Made by a program: the position numbers and the translations under genes. DNA of 32,000 nt from Halalkalibacterium halodurans (GTDB lineage Bacteria; Bacillota; Bacilli; Bacillales; Bacillaceae_D): the NCBI RefSeq assembly GCF_004376175.1, contig NZ_SNUY01000009.1, positions 1 to 32,000 on the forward strand. Reading direction: 5' to 3'. This document shows, piece by piece, positions 19,359-31,481 of the stretch. Below the pieces are notes generated by a model. That model made no database searches, was not told the DNA's origin, and saw only the letters and a program-made list of their open reading frames with translations. How positions within the stretch are numbered: position 1 is the stretch's first letter; each line of letters opens with the position of its first letter.

Positions 19359-20261
19359 TTATTCTCCTAATACTGTTTTGGCGATGTTTTTGTCCAGTGC
19401 TTCAAAATCATCATACGAAATCGTTTCATACAGTTCTTTTCTTGTTTGCATATCTTCTATACCGGCTTCCTGAGTTCCTTCATCTTTTATTAACTGAAAG
19501 ATTCGTTCATAGGCTTTGGCAGCCACTCGCAATGACGTAACTGGATAGATCACCATTTGAAAGCCTGCATTTTGTAATCCTCCTGCGGTCATCAAAGGAG
19601 TTTTCCCGAATTCCGTCATATTTGCAAGCAATGGCGCAGATACATTTTCCGCCACGAGGCGAAATTCTTCGGCCGATTGTAATGCTTCTGGGAAAATAGC
19701 ATCCGCTCCAGCCTCAATATAGGCGTTTGCCCGTTCTATCGCCCCATTTAGCCCTTCATTTGCGCGAGCATCGGTTCTAGCCACAATCACTAATGTGGGT
19801 GCCACCTTTTTAATCGCTTGAATTTTTTGCTCCATTTCTTCTTTGGAAACGAGCTGCTTCCCATTTAAATGGCCACATTTCTTCGGTAGCTGTTGATCTT
19901 CTATTTGAACAGCGGCCACATTTGCTTCTAACATCTCCTGTGCAGTACGAGCTACGTTTAAAACACCGCCAAATCCAGTATCAATATCTACAAGGACCGG
20001 TAAATTGGTTGCCCGCACAAGATCTTTTGCCCGATCAGCAACCTCCGTAGACGTCACAATCCCTAAGTCCGGTAAGCCCCTACTCGCGGTATAGGCGCCA
20101 CCCGATAAATAGAGGGCCGAGAAGCCAGCCTTTTTAGCAACGAGTGCGGCCATCGCATCATGGGCACCAGGGATTTGTAAAATGGCTTCTTCTTTCATTA
20201 GCTGCCTAAACCGGTCAGCTAATTCCTTCTGTGATTTCGGTTGCTCGACGATCCACGCCAT
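19359..20261 (-). CDS. prpB: 2-methylisocitrate lyase
   Basis: Isocitrate lyase/PEP mutase family. It has the IEDQQLPKKCGH active-site motif, is 300 aa, and has a GGAGG SD. It is last in the citrate-synthase-like/PrpD/PrpB order. Confidence 0.88.
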   Translation of the reverse strand: MAWIVEQPKSQKELADRFRQLMKEEAILQIPGAHDAMAALVAKKAGFSALYLSGGAYTASRGLPDLGIVTSTEVADRAKDLVRATNLPVLVDIDTGFGGVLNVARTAQEMLEANVAAVQIEDQQLPKKCGHLNGKQLVSKEEMEQKIQAIKKVAPTLVIVARTDARANEGLNGAIERANAYIEAGADAIFPEALQSAEEFRLVAENVSAPLLANMTEFGKTPLMTAGGLQNAGFQMVIYPVTSLRVAAKAYERIFQLIKDEGTQEAGIEDMQTRKELYETISYDDFEALDKNIAKTVLGE

Positions 20262-20278
20262 TTTCGTGTCCTCCTTAT

Positions 20279-21715
20279 TTACTTCACAAATAACTCTATA
20301 AATTCATTGACATTCATTGCTGCTAACCGATCATAATCATAGCTAACCGCTTCAATTTGCTCTAGTTGTTTTTTTGCATAGTGCGTTCCTAAATTCGCTG
20401 CATATTTTTCCACTATTTTTGGAACAGCTTCTTCTCTCCGAAAGCGGTGGCCTAACGGATACTGGCGTTCAATGTTAGCTGTTGAAGTTCCATCTTTAAA
20501 ATGAACTTGGACTGCATTGGCAATAGATCGTTTTTTCGGGTCTAAGTAATCTTTCGTATAGTCTTTGTTTTCTGTAACGACCATTTTATCCCGAAGTCGA
20601 TCGATCCGAGGATCTGCTGCGGCCTCATCCTCATAATCCTCCGCCACAATTGCTCCTTTTAATAACCCCACTGCTGTTATATATTGCAGACAATGATCCC
20701 GATCAGCAGGGTTATATAATGGACCCCTCTTATCAATAATCCGAATGGCAGACTCATGAGTTGAAATCGTAATATGGTCAATCTCATCGAGACGGCCTTT
20801 AACTTCAGGATGAAGCTCTATTGCAGCCTCTGCTGCCGTTTGCGCATGAAACTCAGCTGGAAACGACACTTTAAATAACACATTTTCCATCACATAGCTA
20901 TCAAGCGGCTGATTCAATACGAGTTTTTGTTTATTAAATAACACATCTTGAAAGCCCCAGCCCGGTGCACTTAAAGCTGTTTGATAGCCCATCTCTCCTT
21001 TTATCGCCATAATCGCTAAACGAACGGCACGGCTTGTGGCATCACCAGCAGCCCATGATTTACGTGAGCCCGTGTTAGGCGCTTGACGATACGTACGTAA
21101 GCTCGAGTTATCGATCCATGCGTTCGATAATGCATTGATGATTTCTTGCCTATCTCCTCCAAGCATTTTCGTTACGACGGCTGTCGTGGCAATTTTTACA
21201 AACAATACATGATCCAGCCCTACACGATTTAAACTGTTTTCTAAAGCTAGTACTCCTTGAATCTCGTGGGCCTTAATCATCATTTCCAAGACGTCTTTGA
21301 CCTTTAATGGTTCCTTGCCTTTTGAAAGGTTCTCTTGACTGATAAAATCGGCAACGGCTAATATCCCGCCCAAATTGTCCGATGGGTGGCCCCACTCAGC
21401 AGCAAGCCACGTATCGTTATAATCTAACCAGCGAATCATTGTGCCAATGTTAAACGCTCCTTGGACAGGGTCCAACACGTAAGAAGTCCCTGGCACCCTT
21501 GTTCCTCTTGGGACGATCGTTCCTGGAACAATTGGTCCGAGATGCTTCGTGCACTCGGGATAGTTTAATGCTAGAATTCCGCACCCAATCGTGTCGATTA
21601 ATACGTAATGAGCAGTCGAAAAAGCCTCCTCACTTGTAATCTCATGATGAAGGACGTAATCTGCGATCTGCTCTAACAAAATATCTGTCGTTCTCTCATC
21701 TTTTACTTGTACCAT
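20279..21715 (-). CDS. prpD: 2-methylcitrate dehydratase (MmgE/PrpD family)
   Basis: 478 aa with PrpD-family composition and size. It lies between prpC-like and prpB genes. GGGGGA SD. Confidence 0.85.
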
Positions 21716-21731
21716 GTTGATCCCCCTTTGC

Positions 21732-22838
21732 TTAGTAGCTTTCCCCGATATAACTTACTCGCGGACGGAAAATACGATTATTCTGATGCTGTTCCATGAC
21801 ATGTGCGGCCAAACCAGCTGTTCGGGCTGTAAAGAATATGGGTGTATATAATTCAATTGGAATCCCTAACATCCAATAGACAGGTGCTGCATAGTAATCT
21901 AGGTTCGGATACAATCCTTTTTCCTCAAGCATCGTTTTTTCTCCAGCCTCACATCTATCTAACAGAGAATAATCTCCTTTTTTCTCACACAGCTGCTTTA
22001 AGGATTCCTTCATTTCTAGTGCACGCGGGTCCATTTTCTTCATATAAACTCTGTGACCAAAGCCCATTACTTTTTCTTTATTGACTAGCTTCTTCTGGAT
22101 TAATTGCTGGAACTCAGCAGCTGAATCAACCGACTGTAACATATACATCACGGCTTCATTGGCACCACCATGAAGATTCCCTTTCAATGAAGCGACTCCC
22201 CCTGTTAATGCTCCATAAAGATCAGAATGGGTTGAAGCAATGACCCTAGCCGTAAACGTTGAGTTAGGCATTTCATGTTCACTATATAAAAGTAAAGACC
22301 GGTCAAAAATCTTCACTTCAAATGGCTTTGGCTCTTTCCCGGTGATCATGTAAAGAAAATTGGCGCTATATGAAAGAGTCGGATCAGGCTGTACCGTTTT
22401 TAGACCGTTTATAAGCCGGTAGCTATTTACCGTAATAGCTGGCAATTTCCCTAACAGTTTATAAGCCCGTGCTTTGTTTGCTTCAGTGGAGCGACTCTCG
22501 ATCTCTTTGTCAACCGAAGAAAGCGCTGACAATCCTGTGCGTAAGCCGTCCATTGGATGTGTTGTCTCCGGTAACAAACTCAATATTTCCATGACATATG
22601 AAGGGATGTCGTAATGTTTCTTCAGCGTGTCTTCCAATGCGGATTTTTCTGAGGCATTTGGCAATGTTCCGTCTAATAATAAATGAACGACGTCTAGATA
22701 ATCGTTGCTTACGGATAAATCAATTAAGTCATGACCTCTAATAATAATCTTTTCTCGTTCTGTATCAAGAAAAGATATCGCGGTCTCTGCTGCAATCACG
22801 CGATCTAAACCAGGAACGAACGGCTGTTTTATGCTCAT
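21732..22838 (-). CDS. prpC: 2-methylcitrate synthase / citrate synthase family
   Basis: AAGGAGGG SD precedes ATG 22838. Citrate-synthase motifs are present ([18 protein letters not shown]-like [12 protein letters not shown]). It is first in the operon with prpD and prpB. Confidence 0.85.
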
Positions 22839-22887
22839 GAACACCCTCCTTATTTCATCCAATCATTTCTATATACCTATTATAAAA

Positions 22888-22916
22888 TTGAAACCAAGAT
22901 TGGAAAAATATATAAT
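22888..22916 (+). promoter_or_regulatory. Candidate sigma-A promoter of the LysR gene (TTGAAA-N17-TATAAT) with embedded palindromes
   Basis: TTGAAA is at 22888-22893 and TATAAT at 22911-22916, with exact 17-nt spacing. The spacer contains CCAAGATTGG (22894-22903). The 10-bp inverted repeat TTGGAAAAAT (22900-22909) / ATTTTTCCAA (22935-22944) brackets the -10. Confidence 0.5.
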
Positions 22917-22963
22917 TTTAATGAATAACCATAAATTTTTCCAATAACAAAGGGGTGTGTTCC

Positions 22964-23833
22964 ATGAGAATGCAAGATTGGGAAATGTTATCGACCTTGT
23001 ATGACACCACAAATATTACGAAAGCGGCTCAGCGCCTTTTCTTATCGCAGCCCACCATAACGTCTCGATTGCAAAAATTAGAAAGCTACTACGGTGTGCA
23101 GCTTATTATTCGTAAGCAAAGGGGAGTAACGTTTACACCTGAAGGCGAAAAGTTAGCGTTACACGCAAAAAAAATGCTACTTGAACAACGAAAGATAGAA
23201 GAACAATTGCATAATATGAGCGAAGAAGTATCTGGATCGATTCGGGTGGGCGTGTCCAATTTTTTCGCTCTTAATAAAATGCCAAAATTGCTTCGCCTTT
23301 TTAAACAAACGTATCCGAATGTCGAATTTCAAGTGGTCACTGGTTGGAGCAGCGAAATGCACCGGCTTATTCTCAACCATGATGTGCACATTGCCTTTAT
23401 AAAAGGGGATTACCTTTGGAATGAAACGAAGCATTTGCTTTACGAGGAAGAAATCTGCATTGCAGCGCCGTGGGAATTCACTTGGGAAGATCTCCCCACA
23501 CTCCCTCGGATTGATTATCATACAGATGAAAAAATGAAGAGCATCGTCGATCAGTGGTGGTACAACCAGTATAAACAAAAGCCAAACGTTACGATCCAAG
23601 TAAATCAAGTCGAAACGTGCAAAGAAATGGTCATTCATGGCTTGGGCTACGCCATTATCGCTAACCTTGTTGTCCGTCCGTACCCTGAGCTTATCATTAA
23701 ACCGCTACACCACCCTTCAGGAAAGCCAATTACTCGCAAAACATGGATGTATTATCATAACGACATGTTGCAGTTAAACATCGTGAAAGCATTTGTACAG
23801 TTTATTCAATCAATCGATGTAAAAGCACTATAG
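22964..23833 (+). CDS. LysR-family transcriptional regulator, divergent from prpCDB
   Basis: N-terminal HTH (ITKAAQRLFLSQPTITSRLQKLE) plus a LysR substrate-binding domain. AAGGGG sits 9 nt before ATG 22964. The arrangement is a divergent activator-operon pair like citR-citA. Confidence 0.85.
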   Translation: MRMQDWEMLSTLYDTTNITKAAQRLFLSQPTITSRLQKLESYYGVQLIIRKQRGVTFTPEGEKLALHAKKMLLEQRKIEEQLHNMSEEVSGSIRVGVSNFFALNKMPKLLRLFKQTYPNVEFQVVTGWSSEMHRLILNHDVHIAFIKGDYLWNETKHLLYEEEICIAAPWEFTWEDLPTLPRIDYHTDEKMKSIVDQWWYNQYKQKPNVTIQVNQVETCKEMVIHGLGYAIIANLVVRPYPELIIKPLHHPSGKPITRKTWMYYHNDMLQLNIVKAFVQFIQSIDVKAL

Positions 23834-26704: not shown

Positions 26705-26828
26705 GATCAGTTCAGCCGAGCACAGAGCCCCTGAACGAGCAAGCTTCAAACCGATGATAACGGATGCAGAACGCTCTCGGAAAGTCTTCTAATTTCATTC
26801 TGATGGGCTTCTATCCTTCGAAAAATGA

Positions 26829-26872
26829 GAAAAAGATAGTGTACTCACGGATGTCGGTAGACTATCTTTTTC
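26829..26872 (+). terminator. 12-bp hairpin downstream of the reductase gene, abutting the truncated gene remnant
   Basis: GAAAAAGATAGT (26829-26840) pairs with ACTATCTTTTTC (26861-26872). The downstream T-tract is weak (TATGTTT). Confidence 0.45.
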
Positions 26873-26881
26873 TATGTTTAA

Positions 26882-27347
26882 TTGGGCATAAAGAAAATCA
26901 GCGTCATTGGCTCCCCATTTACCGGACCATTTCAGACAATTGATTATGTCTATTACCCGCACAAAGACAATGACGTAGATTCGTCCCCTGTTACAACTCT
27001 TCAGGTCCATTCGACCATCCAGCAGCCGCTCCATATGGATATCCTCGATACTGGCACTCACACTATTAGGGGAATTGCATGGACTGGCGCAGGTTCGATC
27101 ACCTCCGTTAAAGTCAGCACAGATCAAGGTCACACGTGGAGGGAAGCCTCGATGGAAAGCCACGATCCGAAAGGCTATGCTTGGATTCCGTGGTCAATCG
27201 AATGGAACGTATCAAGTAAAAGGGGAATACACCATCATGTCGAAGGCGACCGACTCGGCGGGACGCACGCAGCCGGCAGCACCCTTCTGGAACCGAAAAG
27301 GCTATGGCTACCACGCAATCGATCAAGTGAAAGGAAAGGTGGAGTAG
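26882..27347 (+). pseudogene. 5'-truncated, frameshifted remnant of a sulfite-oxidase-family molybdoenzyme (dimerisation/Ig-like C-terminal domain only)
   Basis: Frame A reads ...IRGIAWTGAGSITSVKVSTDQGHTWREA...YAWIPWSIEWN. Frame B (27075-27347) continues KGEYTIMSKATDSAGRTQPAAPFWNRKGYGYHAIDQVKGKVE*. Removing one A from the AAAA run at 27218-27221 joins them. There is no SD, and only about 175 bp lies upstream where a Mo-binding domain of roughly 200 aa (my estimate) would be needed. Confidence 0.65.
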
Positions 27348-27367
27348 AAGAACGTCATAAATAAAGG

Positions 27368-27395
27368 AAGGACAGACGCCCGTTCGTCTGTCCTT
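27368..27395. terminator. Hairpin terminator between the remnant and the convergent radical-SAM operon
   Basis: AAGGACAGACG (27368-27378) pairs with CGTCTGTCCTT (27385-27395). On the minus strand the T-rich CCTTTATTTAT follows. Confidence 0.7.
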
Positions 27396-27410: not shown

Positions 27411-28049
27411 CTAGCCTTGTTCTTTAAACTTCGTTGGACTTAATTTTTTAAATTCCGTTTTATGAAATAATTCTTCTAACGTTTGTTGAGTTGCCATCCC
27501 ATTAACAGAGACCAATCCATCTTCAAGTATACGAATTTCAATCTTGTTGCTGATGGACGCTATTTGCTGTTCTAGATGTTTATACTTATCCGTTAAAAAA
27601 TGATAGCGCTGGTTTGATGATCCAGTCCAAGGCCTGCTTAAATCCAGCTTCTCTTTTACAAAGGGGCCATCAATTAGTAGATCGATAGCTGAAAGGAACA
27701 GCTGACAGTCCTCCCTTTGTTTAAGATCCTCATACATGTAACCTGAGAAAGACATAACCGTCAGCCCTAAGCTTTTTACCTTTTGTGCAAGCTCTCCTAG
27801 CGCCTCGGGTTGGTCAAAGGGCTCCCCGCCCAGAAAGGTAACGCCCTCAATATCGTGGTTCTCTTTGCTTTCCTTAATCTCATGAAAAAGCTGGTCAATG
27901 CTTATGACTTTTCCATTGTCTACTGACCATGTCCATGGGACTGCACACCCTTCACACCGAATCGAGCATCCTTGAACCCAGAGGCAAAAACGTTTCCCTG
28001 GGCCCTCCACTGAGGTTAAAGGTAAATACCGATGAATACGTAAATCCAT
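27411..28049 (-). CDS. NrdG-like radical-SAM activase (glycyl-radical-enzyme-activase fold) with about 55-aa C-terminal extension; no cognate GRE nearby
   Basis: SVEGPGKRFCLWVQGCSIRCEGCAVPWTW carries CX3CX2C in an NrdG-type context. GVTFLGGEPF and LLIDGPFVKEKLDLSRPWTGSSNQRYHFL are colinear with E. coli NrdG motifs as I recall them (NGPGTRCTLFVSGC..C..C, LSGGDP, VLVDGKF...IWRGSSNQ). The start overlaps the upstream stop (TAATG at 28047-28051). Confidence 0.8.
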   Translation of the reverse strand: MDLRIHRYLPLTSVEGPGKRFCLWVQGCSIRCEGCAVPWTWSVDNGKVISIDQLFHEIKESKENHDIEGVTFLGGEPFDQPEALGELAQKVKSLGLTVMSFSGYMYEDLKQREDCQLFLSAIDLLIDGPFVKEKLDLSRPWTGSSNQRYHFLTDKYKHLEQQIASISNKIEIRILEDGLVSVNGMATQQTLEELFHKTEFKKLSPTKFKEQG

Positions 28050-28795
28050 TAGAAATCCAAGACTCTCCCCGCTGGCGCCTTGTTCGGTTCACGAGTTCCT
28101 TCTCCTTCGTTGAGCTTTCCGTTACTAGGAAACGACAGATGAGGCCTAATCTTTTCTGCAAGGTGTGGCTTAATCGAAAGAACCTCAACAAAATGATCAA
28201 AAGACTTGAAAGAGCCCACATCATTTCGAGCGGAGATGATTCGGCGCGCATACAAGCTGCCAATAGCAGGAATTCTTGCAAGTTCCGCTTCCGACGCGAT
28301 GTTAATATTTACAGAAGAACGCTCATTCAAACGTTCCTCAACCTCACCTTTCTCTATAGGTGCGTTGGCTTTCATATTTGGTCGAGGTGATTCTACTTGG
28401 TTAATCGCGTGATGTGCCGTAAGCTTTTGTTTCGTTTCTGTAGCTACCCTTTTCTTTAAGTGGTCATATTTTGACGACCCCATGGCTTCCAATCGAATTA
28501 AGTACTCTGGGCGAATTATGAACGCATGGACAATTGAGACGATCCAAGCAATGATGTGAATAGTTGACACAACGTTATAAATTGGGTGGTCTGAATGGAA
28601 AATGTCATAAGAAACCATAGTGATAATAAATAGTGCTGCATAAATTAGTGCGGCAATCGTCCACTTTCTTTGCTTCACTTTATAACCAGCGTAAAAAAAT
28701 GAAATATAACTTAACATACCTAACGGAAAAGTCCACATGATCCAAATTGAGTTTCTTATTTCCCAACCCTTCCCTTTACTTGTGATATTCGCCAC
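28049..28795 (-). CDS. Membrane protein: three N-terminal TM helices plus a C-terminal ComEA-like helix-hairpin-helix DNA-binding domain
   Basis: GTG 28795 lies 8 nt after AAAGGAGG. TM segments are IWIMWTFPLGMLSYISFFYAGY, WTIAALIYAALFIITMVSY and VVSTIHIIAWIVSIVHAFII. The HhH is VNINIASEAELARIPAIGSLYARRIISARNDVGSFKSFDHF. The C-terminus is ...APAGRVLDF*. Confidence 0.75.
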   Translation of the reverse strand: MANITSKGKGWEIRNSIWIMWTFPLGMLSYISFFYAGYKVKQRKWTIAALIYAALFIITMVSYDIFHSDHPIYNVVSTIHIIAWIVSIVHAFIIRPEYLIRLEAMGSSKYDHLKKRVATETKQKLTAHHAINQVESPRPNMKANAPIEKGEVEERLNERSSVNINIASEAELARIPAIGSLYARRIISARNDVGSFKSFDHFVEVLSIKPHLAEKIRPHLSFPSNGKLNEGEGTREPNKAPAGRVLDF

Positions 28796-28798
28796 ACG

Positions 28799-29011
28799 TT
28801 ATTCCTCCTTTATCGTTTGTTTATTTTGCTTGTGTGTTACAATTTCAGATTCATAATATTCATGCGTAAAATTGGAATCGACTGTTTCAGCGTCAAGCAA
28901 TTCCTCTAATAACTGAATGTATTCAAGGCACTCTTTTCCCTTGATACCTAATGTCTCAGCAAAGATCTCTCCATCTTCTGTTATGCGGATTTGTAGCTTT
29001 TTTTTATCCAT
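28799..29011 (-). CDS. DUF2997-like small protein
   Basis: MDKKKLQIRITEDGEIFAETLGIKGKECLEYIQLLEELL fits my recollection of the DUF2997 pattern (I-x-I-x-x-DG-x-I...G-x-x-G-x-x-C...LE). GGTGGTGGA lies before ATG 29011. The alternative ATG 29041 would overlap the upstream gene by 17 nt. Confidence 0.6.
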   Translation of the reverse strand: MDKKKLQIRITEDGEIFAETLGIKGKECLEYIQLLEELLDAETVDSNFTHEYYESEIVTHKQNKQTIKEE

Positions 29012-29024
29012 TTCATCCACCACC

Positions 29025-29465
29025 TTACGACTGTACTTCAAAGGTTAATAAAATCGAACGGTCTTTTTGAATAGCTTCCGATTCAAGCTCCAACCCATTT
29101 TTCTTTGCACGCTCCACTAGCCTTGTGTAAGTTTCTTGCTGAATAAGATATTTGTACTCAGTATGCAAATTCTCGATGAACTCTAATGCATGCTCTTGTT
29201 CTACACTTTCATCAAAAATGGCTTCAAAAACCCCTTCTTCATTTTGGTAGAAGCCGATCTTGATATCACCAACTTCGGTTTGATAGTTTGTCTCGTCGCC
29301 TTGAACACTACAGCCATATTGTTCGATTGCCTTCTTTAACAGATGCTCCTTTTTCATGACCGTTTGAATCGTGTAAGCTTTATTTTCATTTCTCTTATCA
29401 ATTAATGTAGCTACTTTTTGACCAACAGCAATGCCAATTGGAATTAAAATTAGTTCTATACTCAT
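29025..29465 (-). CDS. DUF1257/Ycf35-like protein with N-terminal hydrophobic segment
   Basis: AAGGGAGA sits 6 nt before ATG 29465. The alternative ATG 29486 overlaps the AAA stop. The core YTIQTVMKKEHLLKKAIEQYGCSV...IKIGFYQNEEGVFEAIFD...ARLVERAKKNGLELESEAIQKDRSILLTFEV resembles the DUF1257 layout. This is a family call from memory, not a search. Confidence 0.55.
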   Translation of the reverse strand: MSIELILIPIGIAVGQKVATLIDKRNENKAYTIQTVMKKEHLLKKAIEQYGCSVQGDETNYQTEVGDIKIGFYQNEEGVFEAIFDESVEQEHALEFIENLHTEYKYLIQQETYTRLVERAKKNGLELESEAIQKDRSILLTFEVQS

Positions 29466-29485
29466 ATCGTTCTCCCTTCTACTCA

Positions 29486-31147
29486 TTAAAAATCAATCGT
29501 TCGACCACCGCGTGAAGAATGAATGTCCTCTGGCTCTGAATCCATTGGGTTCGCAGAGACTTCTATTGTCGGGCTCTCTGCATATTCCTCGCGATCCTTT
29601 CTCGGAGTAGCAGCAACCGCTCTAACATTCGCCCAGTCTCTGATCTGTTTAATTTGTTCGGCTTGTGTGACTGATAATGGGATAAACTGATTACAAATTT
29701 TTTCAAAGTCTGCTAACGTGACACTTCTCTCTTCATAAAACGCTTCAAACAATCCACTAATGACCACTTGCTCAATTTCAGCACCAACAAAGCCCTCTGT
29801 CAGCCTTGCAAGTCTCTCCAAATTGGATTCTGAAATCTGAAAGTCCCCAATGACACCAGGGTCCTTTAATCGTTTGTCTAAATGTACTTTAAAAATATCC
29901 ATTCGCTCACGAAGTGTAGGTAAATCTACAAAAAAGATTTCATCAAATCGGCCTTTACGCATCATTTCAGGTGGTAGCCCGGAAATATTATTTGCGGTAG
30001 CAATGACGAAGACAGGCTTCTCCTTTTCTTGCATCCACGTTAGAAAGTTCGCAAAAATTCTGGAAGATGTTCCACTATCCCCAGCGCCATTAACTCCACC
30101 AAACCCTTTTTCTATTTCATCGATCCACAAGATGGAAGGGGCGATAGCTTCTGCTGTTTGAATGGCCGAGCGCATCCGTTCTTCACTGCTCCCGACTATC
30201 CCACTATAAATCTTCCCAATATCGAGCCTTAACAATGGAAGCTTCCACATATCACTGATTGCCTTGCTAATTAAACTTTTCCCACAACCTGGAACTCCAG
30301 TAATCATCACACCTTTAGGGGAAGGCAAGCAATATTTTTGCGCTGAATCTAACCATGATTTGTTTCGCTTTTCCAGCCAACGCTTTAAATTTTCAAGTCC
30401 ACCTACATCTTCAATATTGAGGTCACTCGTAACAAATTCTAAAATACCTGTTTTTTTAATAATTTGTTCTTTCTCTTGTAGAATAATCGGTACGTCATTA
30501 ATCGAGAGGTTGCCATCTTCAACCATTGCTCTAGCAAATGCATTTTCCGCCTCAGCTAACGTTAACCCTAAGCTTGCCTTAACTAATTTTTCTTTTTCTT
30601 CTTCCGTAATTTGAAAGTCTAAGCTTGTTTTTTGATTGACTGCTATCATTTCATCTAAACTTTGCTTAATTTCTTCAAAAGTAGGCAATCCAAAATCAAA
30701 TATCGTAATATCTTTTTCCAAATCATCCGGTAAAACAAGCTTTGGTGAGATGAATACGATGTTTTTCGGGTTTGGGCTTTGCTTGAGACTAGAAACAAGG
30801 TCCCTAAGCTTTCGAATAATCTGTTGGTCTGGAACTCGTCCGTCTTCCCCGAAAAACACATGAAAATCAAAAAGGATAAAAATGGCAGGTCCCTGATAAT
30901 TTTCAATATGTTCTAATGCTTTCATCGCTGACCGTGTATCACCTTTACTGGTTTGGTCCCCGCAAATGCCCGTTGTGATCTTCCAAGTGATAACCTTTCT
31001 TGGTGTTTTAATTAACTCTTGATTAGCTGCGACTGATTCGACCAAAGCACGTGCCCGATCCTCTTCCCAAGTAGAAATATAAAGGAATGGAAACCGCGCC
31101 CTAAATAGATTTGCCATTAATCTTTGTTTCTTTTGTCTAACATCCAC
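29486..31147 (-). CDS. Classic-clade AAA+ ATPase, Ycf46-like, with about 260-aa N-terminal domain
   Basis: GAGGAGG sits 9 nt before GTG 31147. Walker A is GVPGCGKS, Walker B is ILWIDEIEKG, and the second region of homology is ATANNISGLPPEMMRKGRFDEIFFVDLP. The N-terminus RARFPFLYISTWEEDRA resembles cyanobacterial and plastid Ycf46. The C-terminus is ...SSRGGRTIDF*. Confidence 0.85.
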   Translation of the reverse strand: MDVRQKKQRLMANLFRARFPFLYISTWEEDRARALVESVAANQELIKTPRKVITWKITTGICGDQTSKGDTRSAMKALEHIENYQGPAIFILFDFHVFFGEDGRVPDQQIIRKLRDLVSSLKQSPNPKNIVFISPKLVLPDDLEKDITIFDFGLPTFEEIKQSLDEMIAVNQKTSLDFQITEEEKEKLVKASLGLTLAEAENAFARAMVEDGNLSINDVPIILQEKEQIIKKTGILEFVTSDLNIEDVGGLENLKRWLEKRNKSWLDSAQKYCLPSPKGVMITGVPGCGKSLISKAISDMWKLPLLRLDIGKIYSGIVGSSEERMRSAIQTAEAIAPSILWIDEIEKGFGGVNGAGDSGTSSRIFANFLTWMQEKEKPVFVIATANNISGLPPEMMRKGRFDEIFFVDLPTLRERMDIFKVHLDKRLKDPGVIGDFQISESNLERLARLTEGFVGAEIEQVVISGLFEAFYEERSVTLADFEKICNQFIPLSVTQAEQIKQIRDWANVRAVAATPRKDREEYAESPTIEVSANPMDSEPEDIHSSRGGRTIDF

Positions 31148-31271
31148 CTACCGCATCCTCCTCATTTAAACATCTGTACGACCATAGACCTATGAACATG
31201 AAAAGTGACACACCGACATGATATGAATAGCCCTTTACCAAACGACTACACAGCCCCTTAATTGCCATCAT
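31137..31271 (-). CDS. Unannotated 44-codon ORF (hydrophobic, Cys-containing peptide) overlapping the AAA+ start
   Basis: It is below the ORF-track size cut-off. AAGGAG (31279-31284) sits 7 nt before ATG 31271. My reading is MMAIKGLCSRLVKGYSYHVGVSLFMFIGLWSYRCLNEEDAVGGC*. Its last codons contain the AAA+ SD and its stop overlaps the AAA+ GTG (GTGGATGTTAG). My base count at 31081-31141 disagreed by one nucleotide with the track, so the exact 3' end must be recomputed. Confidence 0.35.
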   Translation of the reverse strand: MMAIKGLCSRLVKGYSYHVGVSLFMFIGLWSYRCLNEEDAVGGC

Positions 31272-31293
31272 TTAACTACTCCTTATAGTCTAT

Positions 31294-31322
31294 ATACTAT
31301 ATTTCTACTATTGTAATGTCCA
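31294..31322 (-). promoter_or_regulatory. Candidate sigma-A promoter of the AAA+/radical-SAM operon with adjacent near-palindrome
   Basis: The minus strand reads TGGACA (31317-31322), N17, TAGTAT (31294-31299). The near-palindrome TATAGTCTATATACTATA (31284-31301, 16/18 symmetric) overlaps the -10 and the TSS region. Confidence 0.3.
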
Positions 31323-31451: not shown

Positions 31452-31481
31452 AAGCCGGACAGCAATAAGAGCTATCCGGCT
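31452..31481 (-). terminator. Terminator of the GNAT gene, insulating it from the downstream operon
   Basis: AGCCGGA (31453-31459) pairs with TCCGGCT (31475-31481). On the minus strand TTATTTCCGTTTTCC follows. Confidence 0.55.

Follow-up and report, generated by a model that had tools for sequence, protein, structure and literature searches.

A five-gene operon of Halalkalibacterium halodurans that joins a Ycf46-type AAA+ ATPase to an NrdG-like radical-SAM enzyme, and its possible role as a membrane-associated machine

In this study, we have explored a cassette of five coupled genes on the minus strand of Halalkalibacterium halodurans contig NZ_SNUY01000009.1 (positions 1 to 32,000; this whole stretch of 32,000 nucleotides is hereafter called the window). 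As read from open reading frames (ORFs) and hairpins, the cassette lies at 31322-27368, between a promoter-like site and a hairpin terminator. Its core is a trio of Ycf46, Ycf35 and DUF2997 proteins (DUF, domain of unknown function), the first of them a p97-like tandem unfoldase whose D1 domain is dead and whose D2 domain is active, and this trio is joined by a radical S-adenosylmethionine (radical-SAM) enzyme of the type of NrdG and pyruvate formate-lyase activating enzyme (PFL-AE), and by a membrane-anchored protein with a ComEA-type helix-hairpin-helix (HhH) domain. We regard as evenly poised the proposal that the cassette is a self-contained, horizontally mobile operon encoding one multi-protein, membrane-associated unfoldase/radical-SAM machine. 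That it serves in conflict or defence, directed at phages or plasmids and sensing or attacking DNA at the membrane, falls a little short of even in our judgement. More tentative, and on the whole unlikely, is the broader idea of a previously unrecognised class of immunity, in which an unfoldase, Ycf35/DUF2997 adaptors and a radical-SAM enzyme would gather on a membrane DNA binder through a shared tail and direct radical chemistry at protein or DNA, ycf46 and ycf35 being, by homology, an unfoldase-adaptor pair that serves an iron-sulphur (Fe-S) enzyme. The five genes are:

29486..31147, minus strand: Ycf46-type AAA+ ATPase of 553 amino acids (aa), GTG start (Pfam, PDB sequence match, Foldseek, tblastn)
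29025..29465, minus strand: divergent DUF1257 (Ycf35-family) protein, 146 aa (Pfam match below the cut-off, and hhalign)
28799..29011, minus strand: DUF2997 protein, 70 aa (Pfam DUF2997, 3e-15)
28049..28795, minus strand: membrane-anchored HhH protein, 248 aa, GTG start (Pfam YxeC, PF27171, precomputed, and HHH_3)
27411..28049, minus strand: NrdG/PFL-AE-like radical-SAM enzyme, 212 aa (Pfam Fer4_12 and Radical_SAM)

Conservation of the cassette and the tail shared by two of its proteins

With the AAA+ protein as query, a search limited to one genome per species gave 80 loci, whose six-frame ORFs were then compared by iterated profile searches. All five families are present together in 33 of these 80 loci, and the full set was also found in each further locus fetched, which amounts to over 40 loci and about ten phyla overall. 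The 33 loci span Bacillales, Paenibacillus, Neobacillus, Clostridium, Actinomycetes, Bacteroidota, Chitinophaga, Riflebacteria, Absconditabacteria, Muiribacterium and a Methanobacteriaceae archaeon. There are at least three gene orders (radical-SAM, DUF1257, HhH, AAA+, DUF2997 in Paenibacillus, and yet another in Clostridium), some core loci carry the HhH or the DUF1257 gene in duplicate, and the pairwise identities of the four partners track those of the AAA+ protein (Spearman rho 0.62-0.80). No flanking family is shared by more than five of the 33 loci, and a sixth conserved gene was rejected on this ground. Because the families co-occur across phyla with unrelated flanks, we conclude that the unit consists of exactly five genes and that their adjacency is not due to chance. 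The original prediction had named a failure of the genes to co-occur elsewhere as the sign of an accidental neighbourhood, and the loci do not bear this out. That the adjacency is an accident, or a lineage-specific fusion of unrelated genes, is a reading for which we found no supporting point and which is refuted by the spread, the permuted orders and the unrelated flanks; its probability is next to nil. In a set of 1.84 billion representatives, the cassette-type DUF1257 profile recovers 677 clusters at 50% identity, and by this measure the system appears widespread, not abundant.

The second observation that carries our argument concerns the C-termini of two of the proteins:

29489..29512, minus strand: C-terminal tail of the AAA+ protein, RGGRTIDF-COOH (end of the AAA+ protein, disordered in its AlphaFold2 (AF2) model)
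28052..28069, minus strand: C-terminal tail of the HhH protein, GRVLDF-COOH, with the AAA+ tail motif (tail comparison)

In the window, the AAA+ protein ends in SSRGGRTIDF and the HhH protein in APAGRVLDF. The AAA+ tail follows RGGRx[IVL][DE][FIL] in 33 of 33 core loci and RGGRx[IVL]DF in 120 of the 120 best database homologues. The HhH proteins end in (G)Rx[IVL][DE][FYIL], and in the 39 HhH tails of the 33 core loci the Arg at -4, the [IVL] at -2, the [DE] at -1 and a hydrophobic last residue are kept. Among the ORFs of at least 60 aa of nine further loci, the motif occurs only in the AAA+ and HhH proteins, and Ycf46 relatives that have no HhH partner are also missing the tail. In a Clostridium locus (L093 12487-15797), two HhH proteins in which an N-terminal GYF_2 domain replaces the YxeC-like anchor still end in ...SRLIDY. 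Moreover, an HhH tail has Glu at -1 only in combination with an AAA+ tail that has it too (9 of 12, versus 0 of 27), with the Glu/Glu pairing confined to Bacteroidota-type loci, a covariation that gives a hint of co-evolution between the two tails. The shared C-terminal tail is a new observation.

The five proteins and how they may act together

The profile libraries used here were Pfam, NCBIfam, PHROGs and PADLOC-DB v2.0.0. The domains and motifs on which the following argument depends are:

30443..31147, minus strand: AAA+ residues 1-235, degenerate D1-like domain without Walker A (AF2, Foldseek, conservation)
29618..30424, minus strand: AAA+ residues 242-510, active D2 module (Pfam, PDB match, invariant columns)
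28136..28318, minus strand: ComEA-type HhH DNA-binding domain, residues 160-220 of the HhH protein (Pfam HHH_3, 8.7e-15)
27945..27968, minus strand: CX3CX2C cluster motif of the radical-SAM enzyme, C28, C32 and C35 (translation; conserved across 41 homologues)
27414..27578, minus strand: C-terminal extension of the radical-SAM enzyme, residues 158-212, with a DUF2997-like beta-hairpin, IEIRILEDGLVSVNGM (conservation and hhalign)

The AAA+ protein matches Pfam AAA (1e-28) and AAA_lid_3, and its PDB sequence match is to the D2 domain of VAT/p97 (8e-49). Its D2 motifs, Walker A (G284-S291), Walker B (D343-E344) and the Arg fingers R397/R400, are intact and invariant in 65 sequences, in agreement with the placing of the protein in the classic clade by the original prediction. 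The N-domain had been called Ycf46-like, and this too stands: tblastn aligned residues 11-504, N-terminal domain included, with cyanobacterial Ycf46 homologues (Crocosphaera, Moorena, Cyanothece) at 36-39% identity, and the JGI name of close homologues is 'SpoVK/Ycf46/Vps4 family' (COG0464 SpoVK/Ycf46/Vps4). The structural comparison refines the description. In the AF2 model, built on 65 homologues, the N-terminal domain has an alpha/beta plus helical-lid topology (predicted local distance difference test, pLDDT, about 85-92), and Foldseek aligned the model over 545-560 columns with the D1-D2 region of p97, Cdc48, Rix7 and AFG2 (TM 0.65-0.68, E 1e-24). Because this match covers D1 and D2 over their full length, the Ycf46 'N-domain' is, on the model, a degenerate p97-like D1 AAA+ domain that has lost its Walker motifs. 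Indeed, the alignment shows no Walker A or B in residues 1-235, and a conserved TWEE.R stands where the P-loop of D1 is expected, a position judged by eye and not by superposition. The modelled chain opens directly with the D1-like fold, with no N-terminal cofactor-binding domain before it, and its last 35 residues are disordered (tail pLDDT 33-44).

The two small proteins are assigned with unequal ease. The DUF2997 identity proposed earlier is secure, with 56.2 bits for PF11211 against a gathering score of 24.1 (E 3e-15) and with the I.I..dG.I hairpin, G.KG..C and T.EYY conserved in the alignment; no relative was found in the PDB. The DUF1257 identity holds by profile-profile comparison and not by Pfam, where PF06868 gives 19.1 bits (E 1.6e-3), below its gathering score of 22.2. 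Since hhalign matches the family to a canonical DUF1257 encoded beside Ycf46-like and DUF2997 genes (probability 91.7%, E 8e-7, 104 columns), the protein of the window is a relative of Ycf35, divergent and with an additional segment at its N-terminus, and NCBI names the product 'DUF1257 domain-containing'. Its AF2 model (pLDDT 80.5) places residues 2-7 in a sheet strand; a membrane anchor or an N-terminal Ser nucleophile was considered for this end of the protein and is not claimed. In a Clostridia genome the two families are fused into one protein of 194 aa (L071 9596-11541), and because of this natural fusion we argue that DUF1257 and DUF2997 may interact physically.

The description of the fourth product as a membrane HhH protein is likewise supported, both by HHH_3 (9e-15) and by hydrophobic segments in a YxeC-like anchor (residues 43-68 and 71-97, and a weaker one at 17-38). 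The protein matches the ComEA structure 8dss (7e-6), and TIGR00426 and TIGR01259 below their cut-offs (43 against 152 for the latter). From the positive-inside pattern, the HhH domain probably faces the cytoplasm.

The radical-SAM enzyme matches Pfam Fer4_12 (3e-36) and Radical_SAM (6e-10), the PFL-AE structure 3c8f (2e-9) and the PHROG 'anaerobic RNR small subunit' (RNR, ribonucleotide reductase; 2e-33). Among NCBIfam profiles NrdG ranks far above PFL-AE, which itself ranks far above QueE or viperin, and TIGR02491 NrdG gives 120.2 bits, under the equivalog cut-off of 126.1. In the alignment the enzyme keeps CX3CX2C, the SAM-binding GGEP and GSSNQ, and no glycyl-radical enzyme or NrdD is encoded in the cassette or in the 16-20 kb around cassettes with annotated or profile-scanned flanks; the original claim of an NrdG-type motif set without a cognate glycyl-radical enzyme was thus well founded. 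What sets the enzyme apart is a C-terminal stretch of about 55 extra residues that both cassette classes conserve (the second is described below). Its hairpin IEIRILEDGLVSVNGM matches the N-terminal hairpin of DUF2997 (hhalign probability 82.6%, E 1e-5, 23 columns), and because of this match we suggest that the two proteins dock alike. It could be argued that the last gene codes for the usual class III RNR activase, NrdG, or for a different glycyl-radical activase, whose target enzyme is encoded elsewhere and which shares the operon incidentally. The TIGR02491 score just under its cut-off, the PHROG match and the three motifs would all suit such an enzyme. Against this, the gene always occurs with the other four and diverges in step with them, its C-terminal extension is family-specific, its supposed partner is missing around the annotated cassettes, and the cassette occurs in Chitinophaga and other carriers that we take to be aerobes. 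We consider this explanation very improbable.

Based on these observations, we propose that the five proteins would form a single membrane-associated complex. The AAA+ and HhH tails may plug into one receptor, either the DUF1257/DUF2997 pair or the radical-SAM enzyme, and through such docking the unfoldase would either be anchored on the DNA-bound HhH protein or be supplied with it. p97 recruits PUB/PUL cofactors through its ...DDLYG C-terminal tail, and the docking proposed here would, by analogy, resemble that recruitment. The radical-SAM enzyme would dock through its DUF2997-like hairpin and would act on a partner within the complex or on the bound DNA, and not on a free metabolite.

Operon structure, genomic context and biological role

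Re-read from the sequence, the ORFs, the coupling junctions and the bracketing hairpins (31481-31453 and 27395-27368) lie where the original prediction had put them. The transcription signals and the small upstream ORF are:

31294..31322, minus strand: promoter-like site upstream of the operon, TGGACA-17-TAGTAT (consensus scan)
31137..31271, minus strand: 44-aa 'leader' ORF with a strong Shine-Dalgarno, doubtful as a gene (ORF list)
27368..27395, minus strand: intrinsic-terminator-like hairpin ending the operon, 11-pair stem followed by a T-rich tail (hairpin scan)
31453..31481, minus strand: terminator-like hairpin of the upstream gene, forming the 5' boundary of the unit (hairpin scan)

The stop codon TAG of the small ORF (31139-31137) overlaps the GTG start of the AAA+ gene. 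The ATG of DUF2997 is preceded by a 13-nt gap carrying a GGTGGTGGA Shine-Dalgarno, the DUF2997/HhH junction reads AAAGGAGGA-TAA-cgt-GTG (3 nt between the genes, with the AAAGGAGGA Shine-Dalgarno inside DUF2997), and the HhH and radical-SAM genes overlap in TAATG. An overlap or direct contact of the AAA+ stop with the next start had also been proposed at 29486; the end of the AAA+ gene is confirmed and the DUF1257 start is not. This gene most likely begins at ATG 29465 (MSIEL...), and not at the overlapping ATG 29486, because an AAGGGAG Shine-Dalgarno precedes this ATG 20 nt past the AAA+ stop, gene callers chose the 146-aa form, and the family keeps the N-terminal pattern MS(I/V)x(L)xL(I/V)P (MS opens the sequence in 129 of 145 representatives, and position 9 is Pro in 124 of these 129). 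Together, the junctions and terminators suggest co-transcription of the five genes. Promoter-like sites in the region equal the shuffled expectation in total number, position being the sole support for the one at 31294..31322. An Rfam scan of the operon and leader returned a noise match only, and no riboswitch or leader RNA.

The small ORF had been counted as a possible sixth gene. A homologue outside H. halodurans was not found in the search of related loci, Pfam, PADLOC and NCBIfam gave no match, and in strain CP040441 the ORF carries a 17-nt frameshifting insertion (L001 9860-10008) within DNA that is otherwise identical. Because of the frameshift and the confinement to one species, the ORF is probably not a gene and we rejected it as unlikely; five genes thus stand and the sixth is doubtful.

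The cassette has a GC content of 39.5-40.6%, versus 42-48% in its flanks. No inverted or direct repeats marking a transposon were found in these flanks, and no near-identical DNA in plasmid and phage collections. The decayed gene said to adjoin the cassette is real: directly downstream, at 26882-27364 of the window (plus strand), lies a frameshifted and N-terminally truncated remnant of a molybdenum-cofactor (Mo-co) oxidoreductase, a pseudogene whose dimerisation domain was recognised on the equivalent ORF of L001 (PF03404, 3.8e-9). Between this pseudogene and an aldo-keto reductase gene there is a 17-nt inverted repeat (26828-26873, 94% complementary, 12-nt loop), which is probably the terminator of the reductase gene. 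Further away, at 19359-23833, methylcitrate-cycle genes (citrate synthase, PrpD and a member of the PEP-mutase/isocitrate-lyase family) with a divergent LysR regulator represent ordinary metabolism unrelated to the cassette.

Elsewhere, the cassette is found on mobile DNA. It is carried by Bacillus cereus/B. thuringiensis megaplasmids, with copies of the insertion sequence IS4 on both sides, and by plasmids of Paenarthrobacter, Arthrobacter and Rhodococcus; the one plasmid from these three genera that was examined, from Paenarthrobacter ureafaciens, has an integrase, a toxin-antitoxin pair, an HNH gene and IS3 near the cassette. In Aneurinibacillus the genes for a D5-primase, a large serine recombinase and RadC are 3 kb away, and in an IMG/VR prophage contig the cassette stands at the end, beside an endolysin-like gene. 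In Priestia megaterium its surroundings resemble a defence island: on one side is an Old-family nuclease (PADLOC 8e-42), on the other a PDC-M38A/PD-Lambda-5-like gene that has Mrr_cat as a neighbour.

Relatives of the ATPase were also seen on mobile DNA in two other settings. A protein that aligns with its ATPase part, at partial coverage, is encoded by about 680 plasmids; 575 of these are conjugative, with Klebsiella, Escherichia, Citrobacter and Salmonella as the main hosts. Ycf46-like AAA+ genes (33-35% identity, near full length) are present in the Streptococcus satellite phage Javan368 (L087 7986-9563) and in a viral contig (L089 7902-9563), in the latter among helicase, primase and methyltransferase genes; no other cassette gene was seen near either, in the annotation or among the scanned ORFs.

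The trio of Ycf46-like AAA+, DUF1257 and DUF2997 is a recurrent, ancient module and the constant part of several architectures. In a sister class (gamma-proteobacteria, Campylobacterota, spirochaetes, Thermoplasmata), the AAA+ and DUF2997 genes accompany an MkoA-like superfamily 1 helicase (PADLOC 1e-85), one protein of no known family and one with a weak phospholipase D (PLD)-nuclease (DrmC) match, which replace the HhH gene, and the AAA+ tail reads ...KLKQE..NPF. An NrdG-like radical-SAM gene is present in its non-gamma members (L048, L059, L062, L068, L069); the sequence fetched for the gamma-proteobacterial loci ends just after DUF2997, before the radical-SAM position. In Paenibacillus taichungensis (L064 7977-12315), the AAA+, canonical DUF1257, DUF2997 and NrdG-like radical-SAM genes precede one for a C5 cytosine DNA methylase, which is extended at its N-terminus by about 150 residues. 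After the DUF1257-DUF2997 fusion of L071 comes a MiaB/RimO-type radical-SAM gene (UPF0004 plus Radical_SAM), and in Thermodesulfobacteriota-type loci the gene after the trio encodes an Hsp70-like or HEAT-repeat protein. Ycf34 is an Fe-S protein. Among red-algal plastids, the retention and loss of ycf35 and ycf46 follow a similar, habitat-linked pattern, shared with ycf34 (PMC5940233), and in cyanobacteria DUF2997-ycf35 lies beside the ferredoxin gene fed7 (PMC4284462). The trio thus seems to accompany, repeatedly, Fe-S proteins of unrelated types, and in the mobile versions the variable partner is, by its domains, a nucleic-acid-directed protein.

The sister system was seen in Shewanella, Vibrio, Photobacterium, Brachyspira and Thermoplasmata (for example L054 7767-17059 and L068 111-9350), with a helicase of about 1150 aa; L068 adds a 173-aa protein to its NrdG-like radical-SAM gene, and in Shewanella the system directly follows guaB-guaA. 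In the gamma loci L049-L067 the AAA+ protein ends in ...E(G/S)ENPF(I/V) and the helicase encoded next to it begins with M(E/D)NPFF, two termini with ENPF in common; terminal mimicry through this motif is unproven and may be chance, and the motif is missing in the non-gamma members.

These architectures bear on two other explanations. In the first, the cassette would be a machine for DNA modification or repair: the HhH protein would position DNA at the membrane, the radical-SAM enzyme would modify a base or the backbone or reverse lesions, and the AAA+ protein would load or remodel. Spore photoproduct lyase provides a precedent for a radical-SAM enzyme acting on DNA, and TIGR03916 one for a radical-SAM enzyme combined with an HhH on DNA, a family that the HhH region of the cassette matches weakly (E 0.006). 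The methylase directly after the radical-SAM gene of L064 and the helicase and PLD-like partners of the sister architecture point the same way. However, the enzyme of the cassette belongs with the small protein activases (NrdG 120 bits) and carries neither a DNA-binding nor an auxiliary-cluster domain, there is no restriction partner in the cassette, and an unfoldase is unexpected with a simple modification enzyme. We hold this explanation to be quite unlikely, and it could in any case describe the modification arm of a restriction-like system, and so be part of defence.

The second explanation is physiological. The cassette would be the bacterial counterpart of Ycf46/Ycf35/DUF2997/Fed7, with the unfoldase and adaptors loading, gating or recycling a [4Fe-4S] enzyme at the membrane in a stress or metabolic function. 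It gains from the recurrence of the trio by unrelated Fe-S proteins (NrdG-like here, MiaB-like in L071, Fed7 in cyanobacteria; PMC4284462), from the plastid retention pattern shared with ycf34 (PMC5940233), from the mostly housekeeping chromosomal contexts and from the conserved Cys in G.KG..C of DUF2997. Yet the distribution is patchy across phyla, with copies on plasmids and mobile elements, the flanks are not conserved, the partners are swapped for an MkoA-like helicase and a weakly PLD-like protein or for a DNA methylase, and the HhH DNA-binding partner and the tail are poorly explained by Fe-S handling alone. A purely physiological role of this kind is, in our view, a minority candidate and improbable.

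The proposal of a membrane-associated conflict machine has to be weighed against a number of points of its own. The cassette holds no classic effector (nuclease, protease or other), the trio is also found in cyanobacteria and plastids and is assumed to have a physiological role there, and DUF1257 offers no functional lead, Foldseek against PDB and BFVD having returned no fold neighbour below E 0.01. Most cassettes sit among housekeeping genes, and a pooled PADLOC scan of 143 flanking proteins gave scattered matches only (mad8, SspH, a type I restriction enzyme, PbeA, BrxL, DpdF); because of these two results, the genomic context is suggestive of defence and not strong evidence for it. The covariation at -1 of the tails rests essentially on one clade. 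A glycyl radical on the shared tail, which the RGGR of the AAA+ protein had suggested, is weakened by the replacement of the Gly in some HhH tails. Finally, PADLOC-DB v2.0.0 is a release of 2023, and a later catalogue could already list the cassette.

If the cassette is a conflict system, it would represent a new immune mechanism, in which a radical-SAM enzyme of the protein-activase type works with a p97-like unfoldase in place of a nuclease, protease or NADase effector. The shared tail would be a short interaction code that is open to direct testing by a few mutants, and the five-gene operon should transfer to Bacillus. The trio spans Bacillus plasmids to red-algal plastids with no known mechanism, and a compact operon may offer an easier route into ycf46 and ycf35 than cyanobacteria or plastids. 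Because the trio recurs next to unrelated Fe-S proteins, we suggest a dedicated unfoldase-adaptor system for Fe-S and radical enzymes, relevant to both fields with or without a role in defence.

Comparison with known systems

The original prediction recognised no pathway or named anti-phage system in these genes, and we agree: none of the genes was placed in a characterised system by Pfam, NCBIfam, PHROGs or PADLOC v2. In PADLOC the DUF1257, DUF2997 and HhH proteins and the small ORF had no match, and the AAA+ and radical-SAM proteins had generic matches only. The literature searched, whose scope left aside the supplementary tables of recent large-scale screens, contains no report that connects either DUF2997 or Ycf46 to a radical-SAM enzyme or to defence.

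Three of the proteins resemble known ones, with clear differences. The radical-SAM enzyme shares with NrdG and PFL-AE the small Fer4_12-type fold, CX3CX2C, GGEP, GSSNQ and the best hidden Markov model matches, a likeness that suggests hydrogen abstraction from a protein substrate. It differs in its sub-equivalog score, in the extension of about 55 residues with a DUF2997-like hairpin, in its constant linkage to AAA+ and DUF genes and in having no glycyl-radical enzyme in or near any examined cassette. With p97/Cdc48/VAT and Rix7/NVL the ATPase has in common the whole-length D1-D2 fold, a classic-clade D2 and a flexible C-terminal tail with a conserved terminal motif. In contrast to p97/Cdc48, its D1 has no nucleotide-binding motifs and is not preceded by an N-terminal cofactor-binding domain; its tail motif is distinct from that of p97 and common to a putative partner or substrate, and no ubiquitin-like system is present. 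Like ComEA, the HhH protein carries an HHH_3 domain on a membrane anchor. Unlike ComEA, it has a multi-pass YxeC-like anchor, a conserved C-terminal tail and an HhH domain that is probably cytoplasmic, it stays below the TIGR01259 cut-off, and there are no com genes near the cassette.

Three defence systems come closest. The first two are pVip (viperin), a known radical-SAM defence enzyme, and IetAS, whose IetA is a classic-clade AAA+ defence ATPase. The match to pVip is to the radical-SAM core only (PADLOC 27.6 bits; NCBIfam viperin 26.5 against 180) and that to IetA to the AAA+ module only (PADLOC 62.5 bits; NF042959 52 against 510), both below family level; the cassette has no viperin C-terminal domain, and no gene for the IetS protease was found in it. 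Mokosh, which pairs the MkoA helicase with the MkoB PLD nuclease, resembles only the sister architecture, through its MkoA-like helicase and weak PLD (DrmC) match. By Pfam and PADLOC the cassette of the window has neither MkoA helicase nor PLD nuclease, and descriptions of Mokosh include no gene for an AAA+, DUF1257, DUF2997 or radical-SAM protein. For each of NrdDG, viperin, IetAS, Mokosh and ComEA, defining features are thus lacking, and judged by its genes the cassette is not a member of any of them and stands, as a system, outside each characterised kind tested.

Its closest relative, by family content, appears to be the uncharacterised Ycf46/Ycf35/DUF2997/Fed7 set of cyanobacteria and plastids. 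The two have the same three families, homology over the full length of the AAA+ protein and an Fe-S protein encoded alongside. In cyanobacteria and plastids, however, the genes belong to the chromosomal or plastid core, ycf46 does not adjoin the others, and the Fe-S partner is a ferredoxin and not a radical-SAM enzyme. The cyanobacterial set has no HhH membrane protein and no RGGRxIDF tail, whereas the cassette combines both with a DUF1257 protein that, compared with cyanobacterial Ycf35, carries an extra conserved N-terminal segment.

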